The notes beneath the pieces were generated by a model. The model ran no database searches. It was not told where the DNA came from and saw nothing but the letters and a program-made list of their open reading frames with translations. Shown one piece after another: positions 26,623 to 54,464 of a stretch of DNA of 64,000 nucleotides. Each line of letters opens with the position of its first letter. The first letter of the stretch is position 1. The DNA comes from a bacterium (GTDB lineage Bacteria; Patescibacteriota; Patescibacteriia; HK-STAS-PATE-3): positions 26,662-90,661 of the forward strand of contig JAZDMR010000009.1 in NCBI GenBank assembly GCA_043800725.1, written 5' to 3'. A program made the translations under genes and the position numbers.

Positions 26623-26707
26623 GCTTCTACATCAGGAATGCTTGCCTGTCAGACAACATCGCACTTTAATAGTTGGAATTATTATGCCTCCTACTCCAAA
26701 CAAACCT

Positions 26708-31012: not shown

Positions 31013-31094
31013 AGAATTTGATTATATTGCTGATGCGCATCTATAAGCCGAATTCTGTCCATTCCGATTCCCGAAGCAACTAAGTTCGGGACTT

Positions 31095-31503
31095 CGAAAT
31101 TGAATGATTATCTATCTAGTCCCGACGTCGCCATCAGGATCAAGCGACCAACCCGTCCCGATCGCACACTTGTGTGGACGCATCGGGACCTACTTGGTCT
31201 TGCACCGGGTAGGGTTTACCCGCCCAAATGGTCACCCATTCAGGCCGTGCGCTCTTACCGCACGATTTCACCTTTTCCCCGCTCCGCGGGGCTTACCCGC
31301 ATCAACGAGGTAGTATGTTTCTGTTGCACTGGCCCTAAAATACTCGTAAAGTCGGCCGATTTTATGTCGTCTTCGCGAGAATCTCGGTTCCATTTCGGAA
31401 CTACCCACTTCCCCACCTTCGCTAAAGCTACGGTGGGGGGTGTTCGGACTTTCCTCCCCGAACACTGTAAAATGCAGTGCTTCGGGGCAATCATTCAATG
31501 CGC
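31095..31503 (-). ncRNA. rnpB: RNase P RNA (bacterial type A)
   Basis: Minus-strand transcript contains GGAGGAAAGTCCGAAC (the P4 5' strand), CGTGCGGTAAGAGCGCACGG (compare E. coli GCGGUAAGAGCGCAC) and GGGTAAACCC. The P1 helix is closed by TTGAATGATT (31489-31498) pairing with AATCATTCAA (31101-31110). Flanked by an outer inverted repeat, ctgatgcgcat at 31030-31040 and atgcgcatcag at 31499-31509. Confidence 0.75.
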
Positions 31504-31590
31504 ATCAGCAAAGCAAAACATACCCAAAAGTGGCTGACATGTCAAGCTGAAATATATATCAAAAATAGGTTATTTTGTCTGTTTTATGCT

Positions 31591-47720: not shown

Positions 47721-48446
47721 TTATAATAGAACCAACTGATTTTGAAACAAAGTGCGATGCTTCTCCAAAACTAGCCAGACATCATTTTGGACTATCTGCT
47801 GTTGATTCCTCCTCACCCTTTTCAAAAAACCTAACACTTCTTTTAGCTGTAGATCTGGGCATTCTTGGGCAAGTTTGCGAAAAGTGATTGCGCCAACAGG
47901 ATTTTTTTTGTAATAACGCGCGAACAATCGATAAGACAGAGCAAATGACATATTGGCCAGAGTCATGGCTAATGAATAATCATGATTTCGCTTTGGATCC
48001 GGAAACTTGCCTTGGACAGTGACTTCTGTGGCATAAGTATAGTACTCACAAGCACAAGAATAAGAAATTCTTGCTCGACGGCATAAAAAACCAACTGCCT
48101 CATCTGATAATCGATTAACCGTTAACCACTTTTTATATCCTTCCGCCTCATCGGCATTGCCCCAGATTAAATCTCCTGTTAAAATCGGCTCGGTAACCAC
48201 CGGATCGAACATTCGCATGAATAAATGAAAATCATTTATTCCAATTTCGGCAATATCAATCAAACCATCCGGCCCATAATATGGATCGATTTGATCGCCT
48301 TCACAAACAGCTATCAGGTCGATATCTTGCTTTTGATTTTTCGAGCCATAGTACCACAGATACCTAATCTGTCCGAAGCGCCTACCAAGACGTGTCCGTA
48401 CTAGTGTCAATATATCTGACTTTGACTGAGACATCTTTGCCTCCAA
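47721..48446 (-). CDS. Putative Pol-beta-superfamily nucleotidyltransferase-fold protein with a C-terminal helical domain
   Basis: 241 aa. YYGSKNQKQDIDLIAV resembles a minimal-NTase GS…DxD motif (the spacing is short). The C-terminal half is predicted helical. Assignment is tentative. Confidence 0.35.
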   Translation of the reverse strand: MEAKMSQSKSDILTLVRTRLGRRFGQIRYLWYYGSKNQKQDIDLIAVCEGDQIDPYYGPDGLIDIAEIGINDFHLFMRMFDPVVTEPILTGDLIWGNADEAEGYKKWLTVNRLSDEAVGFLCRRARISYSCACEYYTYATEVTVQGKFPDPKRNHDYSLAMTLANMSFALSYRLFARYYKKNPVGAITFRKLAQECPDLQLKEVLGFLKRVRRNQQQIVQNDVWLVLEKHRTLFQNQLVLL

Positions 48447-48539
48447 AAAATATAGGGGAGAAACGTATTTAACGCTTCTCCCCTGTGATAGACAACGACT
48501 TACCCCATTTTTAAACAGTCGTTATCTTAGGTGATTGTC

Positions 48540-48737
48540 CTAACGGCCCGGATTCCAGGGCATATGGATCTTCTGGCCGCCCGGGATCTGAGCCGTGGTA
48601 TGGCCGCTGCTGATGTTGCCGTACGGATCGACCCTGAACGTGTCATGAATACCACCGCCCATCGGAGTCGGCCCCATGGGTTGGATACCAAAGCCATTAT
48701 TGATCGGCCGGAACGGAGGATTGGCTGGTATGGACAT
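48540..48737 (-). CDS. Small Pro/Gly-rich protein P1 (65 aa), member of a tandem paralog array
   Basis: MSIPANPPFRPINNGFGIQPMGP… SD is ATAAGGAGAA, 9 nt upstream. GC-rich codons in an AT-rich genome. Confidence 0.5.
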   Translation of the reverse strand: MSIPANPPFRPINNGFGIQPMGPTPMGGGIHDTFRVDPYGNISSGHTTAQIPGGQKIHMPWNPGR

Positions 48738-48870
48738 GATTTAATTCTCCTTATCTGCTTCGAGGTAATGGGCCAGGGCAATTTCTTATCACCCCGGCCC
48801 TTTGATATCTCTTGTTTCACGCTTTCCAACCTTAAGGCCGAAAAACGTCTTGGTTGCGCAGCGTACCGCC
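48738..48870 (-). promoter_or_regulatory. Conserved leader/intergenic element, copy 1 (about 80% identical to 49456..49580); contains hairpin 48770-48800
   Basis: Reading 5' to 3' on the minus strand, the aligned shared blocks are CGCTGCGCAAC, CGGCCTTAAGGTTGGAAAGCGTG, AGATATC, AAGGGYCGGGG, CCCTGGCC and GAAGCAGATAAGGAG. Its 5' part overlaps the last 13 codons of P2. Confidence 0.5.
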
Positions 48871-49071
48871 CAATCTGGCTAACTGTGCATCATTTTCATA
48901 GCTGGGCCGTCCGCCGATTCCGAACGTCGGCAAAGTGGTCTGACCGCTAAACGGCACATGAACCTTTTTCCGACCAAATCCGATATCAGCATGAACACCT
49001 GCTGACGGCGAGAAATGGACCGGGGACAAAGGCTGACCACCAACCATCGGGGGTCTCATGGGAATGGACAT
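48832..49071 (-). CDS. Small Pro/Gly-rich protein P2 (79 aa from the ATG at 49071; ORF track lists a start at 49089 inside the SD)
   Basis: MSIPMRPPMVGGQPLSP…IGFGRKK…FGIGGRPS… SD is GAGGAGGTGAT, 7 nt upstream of the 49071 ATG. Confidence 0.5.
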   Translation of the reverse strand: MSIPMRPPMVGGQPLSPVHFSPSAGVHADIGFGRKKVHVPFSGQTTLPTFGIGGRPSYENDAQLARLGGTLRNQDVFRP

Positions 49072-49179
49072 ACTATCACCTCCTCTCATCGTCCGGTTAA
49101 GGTGATTTTCGCTTTGCTAATCGACATCTAATCAATCCAATGCAATATTTTCATTCAAGAATATGCTGATTCTCAAAGA

Positions 49180-49455
49180 TCACAGAATAGTGGGGAACGG
49201 CAGGGTTGGTCTACTTGTAGGACCAATTGGAGGAAATGTCCCGGGAGGAAAATGCCGGATTGACAATTGCTGAACCTGGGAACAGTATCTTGGCGGATGG
49301 TTTTGGACTGGAAATTGTTGGTCTTGGGAACAGAGTCGTGGTGGGTTGCCAAATCCCACCACTCTTCCACAAAATGGGCAGTGGCCGCCGAAAGTATAGG
49401 TTAAAGGGTGGCCACAGATTGGACAACATGTTCTTGGTAGTGCAGGAAGTGACAT
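49180..49455 (-). CDS. Small Pro-rich zinc-knuckle protein P3 (91 aa)
   Basis: MSLPALPRTCCPICGHPLTYTFGGHCPFCGRVVGFGNPP… has two CPxCG knuckles forming a zinc ribbon. SD is AAGGAGG, 6 nt upstream. Confidence 0.55.
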   Translation of the reverse strand: MSLPALPRTCCPICGHPLTYTFGGHCPFCGRVVGFGNPPRLCSQDQQFPVQNHPPRYCSQVQQLSIRHFPPGTFPPIGPTSRPTLPFPTIL

Positions 49456-49580
49456 AACAAGCCTCCTTATCTGCTTCTAGGTAGTGGCCAGGGTATTTTT
49501 TATCTCCCCGACCCTTCGATATCTCATGTTGCACGCTTTCCAACCTTAAGGCCGGAGAATATCTCTGTTGCGCAGCGTAT
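49456..49580 (-). promoter_or_regulatory. Conserved leader/intergenic element, copy 2; contains hairpin 49485-49514
   Basis: Begins immediately after the P4 stop and ends at the P3 SD. The hairpin differs from copy 1 by a C to U change that keeps pairing as a G.U wobble. Confidence 0.5.
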
Positions 49581-49960
49581 CATCCAGCTTTCAAGAGATT
49601 AAAGCTATTGCAATGCGATTGGATTTGTAATGTAGGCATCAGATGGTCATGAATTCTGGGGTGCAAAGGATCCCATGGTCTAGGCCCCCAGGGTCCTGGA
49701 CAATTATGATGTCCACTAACCCAAGCGCCGCAACTAGAGCAGTACCACTTGTCCATGATCGGATTTGGTCTTGGGAATGGCGAGGGAATACAGTTGTGGA
49801 AGCCATAAACCCATCGACCACAAACATGGCAATGATATCCGCGCTCTTCCCTGCGGCAAACATGAATGCAGCCATCATAGTACTCACCACAGAGAGAACA
49901 GTATTGCCTTCTATCCCAGGTGGGTCCCTGGGGCATACCGGGTAGTGCGGGAAATGACAT
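49580..49960 (-). CDS. Small Cys/His/Pro-rich protein P4 (126 aa) with three CxxCG…(H)HxC repeat units
   Basis: MSFPALPGMPQGPTW…CSLCGEYYDGCIHVC…HCHVCGRWVYGFHNC…CSSCGAWVSGHHNC… SD is AAGGAGG, 6 nt upstream. A 360-bp AT-rich putative promoter region lies upstream. Confidence 0.55.
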   Translation of the reverse strand: MSFPALPGMPQGPTWDRRQYCSLCGEYYDGCIHVCRREERGYHCHVCGRWVYGFHNCIPSPFPRPNPIMDKWYCSSCGAWVSGHHNCPGPWGPRPWDPLHPRIHDHLMPTLQIQSHCNSFNLLKAG

Positions 49961-50322
49961 GACAAGCCTCCTTGTTTAGTTGTCGATGAACGGTTTTAGT
50001 TTCTTTGCTTGCATCATGCGCTAACTGTTATCGAATAACTAAGGAAGAAATAACGAAAAATCCCCCTTTCTGCCTTATTGGGCACTATCGTGAGGGATTT
50101 ATTTCAGAACTACGCGGACTATTAACCAGTTGAATTGGTCTCTATCGTTGAAACAAATTAATAGTTATTTTGTAAATTATCTTGGTTTTATTGATATTTC
50201 AATGGATTATTAATAGCTAATTGAAATTATTTACTTATTCAATTTGTTAATAACCATTTGGAAAAACATGTAAAAAACGAAAAATGGTCATTTTCCGCCA
50301 ATTTTTAAATATACTGCAGTTT

Positions 50323-52176
50323 TTATATCCTTCGAACTAGAAAATATACCTCAAATTGGGGCGATTCCATTTTAATAGTATATTTTCTGATTGGACCCTG
50401 TAAATTTATTGGCAAGGACTGTTGAAGCTTTGTTTTAATCGCTTTCTGCAGCGGAGTAATAATTTTACTTTGCAGCTCATTACGGTCAGCCGTATAGGAA
50501 CAAACCGGAAGGCTGGTTTTATCAAGACTTTCATTTAAATGATCTGCCATGACTTTAAATATTTTTATAGTCGCTATGGCCGACTTCAGTTCTTTGGAAT
50601 CCAGGTGGTGTCCGTGAATCAATATGCTTTTTGTCGTCAGGTCAAAAAATAACGGGAAGGTATCACGTTTACCCTCAAACTGCTCCATTGTCATGGTCAA
50701 AGATGTTTTACCGGTTTTGGAAAACATATCCAAAACCACACTGCCTTTTGAGATAAAATTCGAATAGACATCTTGACTGAGCATCTGCTCGACGATTACT
50801 CCTTTTTCCTCAAAACCGTCGCGACTTGAAGAATAATCAAGATTGATTGTTTCTTTAATCGTACGGCGTAATCCAATAATTATTTTATTTAATTCCCTGA
50901 TTCCGTCTCTCCCCGGGACGACCACTACGATATCTCCGCCACGCCCTGCTCCGGTCATTTTCACTCCCGCATCAGAAAAACCGTATTTTGTTCGAAGACT
51001 GTCTTTTATTATATGGGTTATTCGATTATTTGTCGGGGAAGTACGCCGTAGAATGCGCAATGATTTTTGAAACGAATTTATTGATTGGCATAGACTAGTT
51101 ACTGATCGTTCTGAACCACCCATTTCGAAAAGTTCTTTTAGCGCTAACAATACAAATAACGTTAAAGTCGCATTAGTGCCCAATAAACTCTTATGCAATC
51201 CCTCCCAACCTTCAGTCAGACATTGTTGATAAAATATTGGACTAAAAACATTCTGATTTTCACTTAAAAAGTTGAATGACTTTTTTATGGTTTTATCAAT
51301 TTCCATTAAGTTATTATCAATTTCTCGAATCGACTTCGCTGAACGTCCTCCACCTCGTTCACCTGAAAAAACCAGAAATATTTCCAGCGGCCAGGTCGAA
51401 TCATGAGGGATTTTAAATAGTTCGTCTAGTTTAATTCCGCCATAAAAAAGACGGTCCAATAAATTATAGTTTTCATCGATGTTTAAAGGCACCCGAACGT
51501 CTCCGGGCGTAGCCAGATAACCTGCACGTTTTTCCGAATAATAAATAATCGGATAAATTGATCCGATAAACGATAGAAAGCTCGCACCGCCTGAAGAAAT
51601 TCCGTCATGGAGCAGCGAGGATATTTTCCAGGAAAATCGCTGAGCCCGATCAAATGAGCGTATCTGAGAAAGTAAATATGTAGGCTTTAAAGACCATTTA
51701 TCAATATCTGATAATAAAATTCTGCCAATATGCAATTGCAAAGCTACGGACAAAGCAGACGCAAACGATCCCGAGGCGCCCATCCCGTTTCCTGGCGGTA
51801 CTTCGCAAATAGAGTGAATACGCAAGCTTTGAAAATCCGGTCGACCCAACCACTGTTCTACCCGACTTCGCAGGTACCGTTCCAAATTTTTTCGATGTAT
51901 CTGATCCATCTGCGCGATAAAATTATCACGCGATGGAATATACATTTTATCGATTATTTCTATCTTGCCCTTCGACTTCAAATATTCCAGACCAACATAA
52001 GCGCGTAGCGGCAGATTTTGTCCGATTAAGGGACTGCCGATATATGCACCGTATTCGCCTGCCCAGAAAAACTTTACCGGTGTGGAAACAACGATAAAAC
52101 AGCTTGAGTAGAGATTTTGGTAAATCTCTTTATGTCTCTGTTTTATACTTTTTGAGTTGTTGATCCGCTCAGCCAT
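50323..52176 (-). CDS. GHMP-family kinase with an unusually long inter-motif spacing and a C-terminal extension of about 170 aa
   Basis: 617 aa. Motif I-like PVKFFWAGEYGAYIGSP, motif II PPGNGMGASGSFASA, motif III KMTGAGRGGDIVVVVPG (GHMP_kinases_C). Residues after about 450 are unassigned. Confidence 0.6.
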   Translation of the reverse strand: MAERINNSKSIKQRHKEIYQNLYSSCFIVVSTPVKFFWAGEYGAYIGSPLIGQNLPLRAYVGLEYLKSKGKIEIIDKMYIPSRDNFIAQMDQIHRKNLERYLRSRVEQWLGRPDFQSLRIHSICEVPPGNGMGASGSFASALSVALQLHIGRILLSDIDKWSLKPTYLLSQIRSFDRAQRFSWKISSLLHDGISSGGASFLSFIGSIYPIIYYSEKRAGYLATPGDVRVPLNIDENYNLLDRLFYGGIKLDELFKIPHDSTWPLEIFLVFSGERGGGRSAKSIREIDNNLMEIDKTIKKSFNFLSENQNVFSPIFYQQCLTEGWEGLHKSLLGTNATLTLFVLLALKELFEMGGSERSVTSLCQSINSFQKSLRILRRTSPTNNRITHIIKDSLRTKYGFSDAGVKMTGAGRGGDIVVVVPGRDGIRELNKIIIGLRRTIKETINLDYSSSRDGFEEKGVIVEQMLSQDVYSNFISKGSVVLDMFSKTGKTSLTMTMEQFEGKRDTFPLFFDLTTKSILIHGHHLDSKELKSAIATIKIFKVMADHLNESLDKTSLPVCSYTADRNELQSKIITPLQKAIKTKLQQSLPINLQGPIRKYTIKMESPQFEVYFLVRRI

Positions 52177-54367: not shown

Positions 54368-54464
54368 AAATTTAATGATAAATAGTAACTATATAAGGAT
54401 AAGTTTTTTTAGAAGAATGCGAAGATAACAGTGGCTACCTTCGCATTCTTCATTAAACCACATC

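Follow-up and report, generated by a model that had tools for sequence, protein, structure and literature searches.

A gene junction with two predicted RNA hairpins, duplicated within a small-gene cluster of a patescibacterial genome

Structures that protect 3' or 5' ends at the boundaries between cistrons are an established kind of element, and they often overlap coding sequence (PMC5927463). Examples include the repetitive extragenic palindromic (REP) hairpins of malE-malF, the intercistronic stem-loop of puf, and the 5' structures of the papBA type (Dar & Sorek 2018, PMC5927463). In malE-malF and puf, a 3' hairpin blocks 3'-to-5' exonucleases after endonucleolytic cleavage; in papBA, a 5' hairpin shields the downstream fragment (PMC5927463). 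Here, we analyse a stretch of 64,000 nucleotides (hereafter the window; positions 26,662 to 90,661 of contig JAZDMR010000009.1, assembly GCA_043800725.1) in which four small genes, P4, P3, P2, and P1, lie between a GHMP-kinase-like gene and a nucleotidyltransferase-like (NT-like) gene, all of them on the minus strand, and in which one sequence occurs both between P2 and P1 (copy 1) and between P4 and P3 (copy 2). What a first-pass annotation had taken for a conserved leader resolves into a coding tail, two sense-strand hairpins, and a Shine-Dalgarno (SD) sequence, i.e., into a copied gene junction. The ancestral copy can be identified, and the other would have arisen through recombination at the SD, which left a dead gene fragment behind. 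Taken together, these anatomical and evolutionary statements are ones that we make with considerable confidence.

The repeat is made of a direct repeat of 92 nt at 84% identity (48781-48872 / 49495-49586) and a second one, D4, of 25 nt at 92% (48747-48771 / 49463-49487). Aligned globally, 48738-48872 and 49456-49586 match at 106 of 131 ungapped columns (81%), and the blastn match, over 119 nt, is 85.7% identical (E 1e-19); blastn detected no third copy in the window. Alignments at 81-86% thus bear out the earlier description of two copies about 80% identical over some 125 nt. A 23-nt core, CGGCCTTAAGGTTGGAAAGCGTG, is present exactly twice in the window, where zero occurrences are expected, and had no exact match in viral contigs. 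The boundaries first described for the copies also stand: copy 1 overlaps the final 13 codons of P2 (LGGTLRNQDVFRP), whose stop is at 48834-48832, and copy 2 begins at the stop of P4 (TGA, 49582-49580). What finds no support is the view that an element was kept under constraint while the flanking open reading frames (ORFs) diverged strongly. These ORFs belong to different, unrelated families (comparing P1 with P3 yields E 0.86, and P2 and P4 do not align), and the substitutions between the copies are spread about evenly across stems, loops, and linker. P3 and P4 are, judging from their alignment, old paralogues, with third codon positions that agree at just 15 of 37 identical residues, i.e., with saturated synonymous sites. 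Because this agreement is so low, the copying of the element would either be younger than the split between P3 and P4, or the element would have changed more slowly than these genes.

Read on the mRNA strand, copy 1 has five parts (Table 1). Its coding part ends in the C-terminus LGG(T/S)LxNxD(I/V/L)F of the P2 family, found in 13 of the 23 aligned members (the core of the tail being N-x-D-[IV]-F), and from one locus to another the codons of this tail vary synonymously (aac/aat, gac/gat, atc/att/gtt/gta, ttc/ttt), so that selection on the tail acts at the level of the protein. The UAA stop codon of P2 (48834-48832) lies in the loop of hairpin A, the first of the two predicted stem-loops, and the second, hairpin B, is separated from it by a linker and followed by the SD of P1. 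Ranked by stability against all 40-nt hairpins of the minus strand in the window, copy 1's hairpin B comes second, at -24.3 kcal/mol, and its hairpin A falls within the top 0.5%. The most stable hairpin of that strand is found elsewhere, at 54412-54451, and has an 18-bp perfect stem (GAAGAAUGCGAAGGUAGC / GUUAUCUUCGCAUUCUUC, -25.6 kcal/mol). We also observed that two short perfect DNA palindromes are kept in both copies, CCTTAAGG at the top of hairpin A (48829-48836) and GATATC in the linker (48806-48811).

The direction of copying can be read from copy 2. Its relic, KLDDTLRNRDILRP followed by a stop, is in exactly the same register as the P2 tail of copy 1. It is off-frame relative to P4, is closed by an in-frame TGA five codons 5' of T-L-R-N, and has DD where the P2 family invariably has GG (columns G68 and G69). 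This shows copy 2 to contain a dead P2-type fragment and to have been copied from a junction of the P2-to-P1 type, not the reverse. Copy 1 is therefore ancestral and copy 2 derived. A programmed frameshift from P4 into the relic tail was considered and dropped: the slippery motif is unsupported, and the family-invariant residues are lost. At the other end of copy 2, a further repeat, D3, runs from AAGGAG through codon 7 of P3 and matches the start of P4 (49941-49973) at 91%, and D3 and D4, the match to the P1 leader, overlap precisely on the 6-nt SD. Copy 2 may thus have been made by unequal or illegitimate recombination between SD sequences, with the 3' breakpoint in AAGGAG. In one version of these events, which is unconfirmed, P3, P2, and the element would have been duplicated in tandem, and most of the upstream P2 would later have been lost. 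We do not claim the 3' extension of P4 as a deletion junction, an idea that was tried: its local alignments with the P3-P2 spacer or with the region upstream of the P2 homologue (P2h) in locus L023 score no higher than shuffles (z 1.2-1.4).

The copies differ in how well they fold. For the 101-nt core of copy 1, the predicted sense-strand energy is -40.9 kcal/mol (z -5.65), compared with -24.3 kcal/mol for the antisense strand. For copy 2, the values are -26.2 kcal/mol (z -2.0), a fold not better than about 3% of the shuffles, and -16.5 kcal/mol (z +1.25), respectively. Several G.U pairs can form on the sense strand only. This asymmetry argues against a DNA palindrome or an element of the opposite strand, and the predicted folds support a duplicated element that acts at the RNA level on the coding (minus) strand. 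The hairpins of copy 2 are reduced: hairpin A ranks merely in the top 10% of the window, and hairpin B, which has lost the inner extension and one outer pair, stands at -13.9 kcal/mol and in the top 1.2%. The copies show no difference in the inner 7 bp of hairpin A, in the whole 3' arm, or over the 14 nt that lead up to the SD. Three changes in the stems are compatible with wobble pairing (helix A pairs 2 and 8; helix B pair 5) and three break pairs (helix A pairs 3 and 6; helix B pair 2), namely a G-C that becomes GxA in helix B, and a G-C and a U-A that become AxC and CxA in the outer part of helix A. With as many changes that break pairs as changes that keep them, the covariation signal within the window is nil. 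The C-to-U change at pair 5 of hairpin B does yield the U.G wobble that had been pointed out, and the accompanying statement that the helix is preserved has to be qualified by the broken pair in the same helix.

Some relatives have a comparable arrangement. In loci L001-L005 and L015, which lack P2 and P4, the order is GHMP-like gene, P3 homologue, a 336-nt spacer, a P1 homologue (78% identical), a terminator, and the NT-like gene. Over its last 115 nt, the L001 spacer has, in this order, a hairpin of 11 bp and a 4-nt loop, 18 nt, a homologue of hairpin B, and an SD; the arms of the latter hairpin (GGGGUCAGG/UCUGGCUCC) are recognisably homologous to those of hairpin B in the window, and L001 folds at -27.5 kcal/mol on the sense strand (z -3.0) and at -17.0 kcal/mol on the antisense strand. 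Since no ORF runs through hairpin A in L001, this hairpin is not a by-product of coding constraint there. Looking for a relic of P2 in the L001 spacer, we found the SD-like GGAGGTGAT to be not significant (z -0.1). When L001 is compared with the window, pairing in helix B is kept through four one-sided changes and one outer pair is new, and helix A has five pairs that differ on both sides, counts that come from an alignment fitted to the structure by hand and hence biased towards it. We used this alignment because MAFFT loses the register of helix A when the window copies are aligned with L001. The comparison, as modelled, shows that architecture and spacing are conserved, which is to be distinguished from statistically tested covariation. 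Beside the strand asymmetry, it is the second observation that speaks for RNA-level hairpins. As a separate observation, L001 has CCAA-T-TTGG where the linker meets hairpin B.

Most homologous P1 and P2 loci that we examined lack the element and have different gene orders. Distant P1 homologues (43-66% identical) are preceded by AT-rich promoter-like regions, and a homologue at 75% identity lies only 49 nt from the preceding gene, in both cases without the element. Locus L023, which has the closest P2 homologue (81% identical in amino acids and about 80% in nucleotides through P2), has a 9-bp hairpin over the stop codon, and past it a different strong hairpin and different downstream genes. 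The other tail-bearing P2 homologues often have a small stop hairpin, and all have a strong hairpin 15-35 nt downstream; those of L006, L014, L024, and L026 have a canonical terminator at the equivalent position. Strong hairpins just 3' of P1- or P2-type genes, sometimes directly 5' of the next SD, are found in L023, L024, L025, L026, and L029, and in L029 a terminator-like hairpin stands directly 5' of the SD of the next small Cys-rich gene. Strong hairpins at small-gene boundaries are, on these comparisons, a recurring feature of such clusters, and the 125-nt sequence itself is seemingly confined to the lineage of the window. Homologous loci without the element had been named beforehand as evidence that would speak against it. 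Most loci are indeed without it, and the L001 lineage nevertheless keeps the two-hairpin architecture.

What might the element do? A single transcription unit, ending at the terminator at 48484-48454, appears to contain all four small genes, because the consensus and terminator scans found neither promoters nor terminators between P4 and that terminator; the only U-tract terminators in the scan follow P1 and the NT-like gene. The element thus places a stable sense-strand stem-loop at a cistron boundary of a putatively co-transcribed unit. By analogy with known systems, the reading that we prefer, and in which we have middling confidence, is that its hairpins are intercistronic protective or leaky-terminator stem-loops that were duplicated by recombination. 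Both stem-loops would then be determinants of stability, processing, or leaky termination on a polycistronic mRNA. The upstream cistron would be protected at its 3' end by hairpin A, the unstructured linker would be the likely entry site for an endonuclease, and hairpin B would either shield the downstream cistron at its 5' end or bring part of the transcription to a stop; in a variant of this model, termination at hairpin B would be partial and independent of a U tract. Together, hairpins and linker would determine how strongly the small cistrons are expressed relative to one another. If they do set mRNA stoichiometry, then RNA structure would here have reshaped an operon in the Candidate Phyla Radiation, a group whose post-transcriptional control has, to our knowledge, hardly been studied.

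Several described classes were set aside on the way to this reading. In Rfam (4227 models), the element is unmatched at gathering scores over the whole window, and the relaxed search of 48400-50200, at E up to 10, left both copies without a hit, so the covariance-model check that had been proposed assigns neither copy to a family. A sigma-70-like promoter was found in neither 48738-48872 nor 49456-49586 by the consensus scan (at least 9 of 12 hexamer matches, A2 and T6 in the -10 hexamer, and a spacing of 16-18 nt). A dispersed repeat of the REP/BIME or MITE (miniature inverted-repeat transposable element) kind was rejected, there being two copies in 64 kb and both in one operon. The first-pass proposal of a duplicated cis-regulatory RNA or DNA element therefore survives as RNA hairpins of the sense strand; its promoter version finds nothing in the scan, and "leader" is too simple a name for a sequence that includes a coding tail.

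Other points weigh against protective or leaky-terminator stem-loops. First, hairpin B is a GC-rich stem-loop of 9-13 bp whose tail (AUUACCUCG in copy 1, CUACCUAG in copy 2) has no U tract. Classical intrinsic termination is therefore unlikely and the canonical class is ruled out for this hairpin, which the terminator scan misses while finding those at 48484-48454 and 47722-47693. Second, the comparison of helix A with L001 is fitted by hand, and its apparently compensatory changes could come from two unrelated hairpins in the same place. Third, a single independent lineage (L001-L005, L015) shares the architecture. Fourth, the stems of the two copies are conserved no better than the loops and the linker. 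The copies differ at 10 of 41 positions of the tail and at 3 of 18 of the linker, as well as in the loop of B and in the segment after it, and divergence in the tail compared with the non-coding core (10/41 vs about 11/84) goes in the expected direction without being significant. Since stems are no better conserved, copy 2 may be a neutral by-product.

This last point leads to the strongest rival explanation, which we judge possible but somewhat unlikely: copy 2 would be a neutral leftover from a segmental duplication or recombination event of fairly recent date, its identity to copy 1 would reflect only age, and copy 1 might still be functional. The even spread of substitutions is what such a remnant would give, as are pair-breaking changes that are as frequent as wobble-compatible ones, a weak fold with a hairpin A of unremarkable rank, and the presence of a dead gene fragment next to a chimeric SD junction. 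Yet the synonymous sites of P3 and P4 are saturated, and if these genes were copied in the same event, the element has changed far more slowly than they have; moreover, hairpin B of copy 2 still ranks high, and the parts that are unaltered between the copies include the inner pairs of hairpin A and the approach to the SD.

We consider it doubtful that the element is an internal promoter with a 5' leader, in which transcription would start within or just before it and hairpin B, or A and B together, would form the 5' untranslated region of separate P1 and P3 transcripts. A 5'-terminal hairpin is a known mRNA stabiliser, and the best-conserved stretch does contain TTGGAA, 16 nt, and TATCAA (copy 1) or TATCGA (copy 2), but these candidate -10 hexamers are without the invariant final T (T6), and the scan is empty in both copies. 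The DNA upstream of copy 1 is P2 coding sequence, without a promoter-like site. L001 has a site with 9 of 12 matches just upstream of hairpin A (TATACA, 16 nt, GATAAT; 2162-2189), but it is weak, with five such sites in the region against 1.6 expected, and the window and L001 do not have the candidate hexamers in common.

A structured regulatory leader of P1 and P3 (a riboswitch, a protein operator, or a translational attenuator) that responds to a ligand or to a protein of the cluster seems to us no less improbable than the promoter. It would account for two hairpins that stand, with conserved spacing, upstream of an SD in two lineages, within a conserved cluster of unassigned function, and the P2 stop in the loop of hairpin A could couple the translation of P2 to the folding downstream. 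In copy 2, however, hairpin A is crossed by no translated ORF, and an alternative pairing that hides the SD and is common to both copies was not found. Loops and linker are not conserved in sequence between the lineages, as a site for a ligand or protein would normally require, and both the Rfam search and the P1 homologues at 43-66% and 75% identity, which do without the element, speak against such a leader. We think it similarly improbable that the two-hairpin module is an undescribed cis-regulatory RNA specific to this cluster of GHMP-kinase-like gene, P1/P2 peptides, and NT-like gene, which would gate the translation of the next small cistron via a bound protein of the cluster or via termination at the stop in hairpin A. 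Finally, that the core codes in another frame, through TTG ORFs at 48527-48829 and 49211-49543 with products starting MESV..EISKGRGDKK, is very improbable and was rejected: although four of the six differences between the copies in the first 16 codons are synonymous third-position changes, four of six at one codon position has a chance of about 30%, a 2-nt indel after codon 16 breaks the frame and leaves remaining products that are unrelated, the ORFs overlap P1 and P3 while P1's own frame is conserved across genomes, and such an ORF is absent in L001.

Table 1. Coordinates of the element, the small genes, and their neighbours (window positions unless a locus is named).
Feature	Position	Strand	Description
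Copy 1	48738..48872	-	P2 tail, hairpin A, linker, hairpin B, SD region; native P2-to-P1 junction
Last 13 P2 codons	48835..48873	-	LGGTLRNQDVFRP; 5' third of copy 1, real coding sequence
Hairpin A, copy 1	48819..48848	-	13-bp stem ACGUUUUUCGGCC / GGUUGGAAAGCGU, 4 G.U pairs, UUAA loop
Linker	48801..48818	-	18 nt, A-rich, predicted single-stranded, GAAACAAGAGAUAUCAAA, includes GATATC palindrome
Hairpin B, copy 1	48770..48800	-	core stem GGGCCGGGG / CCCUGGCCC, extends to 13 bp, AAGAA loop
P1 Shine-Dalgarno AAGGAG	48747..48752	-	3' limit of repeat; 17 nt beyond hairpin B, then P1 AUG
Copy 2	49456..49586	-	between P4 and P3; derived
P2-tail relic, copy 2	49546..49590	-	(TGA) K L D D T L R N R D I L R P TAA
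Hairpin A, copy 2	49533..49562	-	inner 7 bp left (UCCGGCC / GGUUGGA); outer stem with 2 mismatches
Hairpin B, copy 2	49485..49514	-	GGGUCGGGG / CCCUGGCC, 12-nt loop, C-to-U wobble
Putative recombination junction	49436..49468	-	5' of AAGGAG (49468-49463) copy-1-like; AAGGAG to P3 codon 7 P4-like
P1	48540..48737	-	65-aa small protein, conserved family; homologues P0023, P0025, P0026, P0028, P0029, loci L015-L022
P2	48832..49071	-	79-aa small protein, conserved family; ~22 homologues
P3	49180..49455	-	91-aa Cys-rich small protein; L001 homologue at 1790-1972, tblastn E 1.5e-12
P4	49580..49960	-	126-aa Cys-rich P3 paralogue
Canonical intrinsic terminator after P1	48454..48484	-	13-bp stem and U tract; L001 equivalent at 2567-2592
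NT-like gene	47721-48434	-	downstream of P1; own U-tract terminator 47722-47693
GHMP-kinase-like gene	50323-52176	-	upstream of small-gene cluster
NT-like gene, L001	2617-3288		
NT-like gene, L006	3308-3949		
NT-like gene, L019	~2809-3400		
NT-like gene, L021	~1074-1630		
NT-like gene, L024	2305-2922		
NT-like gene, L025	1807-2454		
NT-like gene, L026	416-1024		
NT-like gene, L027	1676-2341	-	

The cluster (source locus tags V1853_00890 to 00900; the relatives of the source genome are Patescibacteria) has a GC content of 47-53%, compared with about 38-42% in the genome region, and is preceded by an intergenic stretch of 27-31% GC. The counts of homologues in Table 1 for P1 and P2 come from a profile search, which found five and about 22, respectively. 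Looking up the exact protein gave no match for P1 and, for P2, a Logan contig that matches the window at 100%, so that no population variation was obtained. In this identical contig (L028), P3 is covered by a called antisense ORF of 73 aa (523-744), and P1 is left uncalled; small genes here are inconsistently annotated. P3 and P4 were absent from an alignment search of a 5.8-billion-protein collection, the search with the NT-like protein returned only itself, and sequence searches of Pfam, NCBIfam, PADLOC, and PDB were uninformative for P1-P4 and the NT-like protein.

The more interesting lead is the context, i.e., a family of small proteins encoded almost always beside an uncharacterised NT-like gene. 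This gene adjoins a P1- or P2-family gene in essentially all loci with enough context, and its product, of 202-241 aa, has a minimal nucleotidyltransferase-like motif (G-S...D-I-D-L). From this gene order, the pair looks like a conserved two-gene module, possibly for peptide modification. The GHMP-like protein (about 520-620 aa) has only a weak N-terminal signature of a GHMP or mevalonate kinase, and the window, the L001 lineage (L001 1-1671), and L014 (6-1115) all carry its gene upstream of the small-gene cluster. All four small ORFs start with M-S-x-P-(A/M)-x-P (minus strand, 48717-48737, 49051-49071, 49435-49455, and 49940-49960) despite belonging to at least three unrelated families, and many P1 and P2 homologues likewise start with MS.P; this common start may reflect an N-terminal signal that they share, or constraints on how translation initiates. 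P3 contains an internal direct repeat, D2, of 48 nt (16 codons) at 73% (49257-49296 / 49305-49344), in which PPR(L/Y)CSQ(D/V)QQ... appears twice. Small Cys-rich proteins with CxxC pairs and charged helical tails are encoded 3' of P1- or P2-type genes in L023 (560-751, 778-948) and L029 (445-699, 770-1066), and such zinc-ribbon-like proteins may be regular partners of the P1 and P2 families, echoing P3 and P4. Elsewhere in the window, a match to the bacterial class A RNase P RNA (31028-31506, minus strand) spans 479 nt against a model of 367 positions, which implies sizeable insertions.

Set against the described systems, the element shares with protective stem-loops 1) stable sense-strand hairpins at cistron boundaries of a polycistronic unit; 2) a hairpin, here A, that overlaps the coding end of the upstream gene; 3) a single-stranded A/U-rich segment between the hairpins on the 3' and 5' sides; and 4) more than one structure in one operon (PMC5927463). 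It is unlike malE-malF, puf, and papBA in being known from sequence alone, in an uncultured bacterium of Patescibacteria type, and in separating very short cistrons (65-126 codons). In contrast to the dispersed REP family, it has two copies only in 64 kb, and both are in the same operon. Leaky terminators follow highly expressed small structural genes, such as the precursor genes of lantibiotic type, on which our literature search returned nothing specific. With these and with intrinsic terminators, the element has in common a GC-rich hairpin 18-35 nt past the stop of a small gene, and a partial read-through into the next gene would be allowed as with leaky ones; it differs from intrinsic terminators in that hairpin B has no U tract and is missed by the scan. 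It resembles the leaders and riboswitches of Rfam in lying upstream of an SD, in its size of about 100 nt, and in its two helices, and departs from them in having no unpaired nucleotides conserved between lineages and a very narrow phyletic spread. The element would be best placed as a new, lineage-restricted instance of a known element type that was duplicated by recombination, which fits within the current understanding of intercistronic structures.

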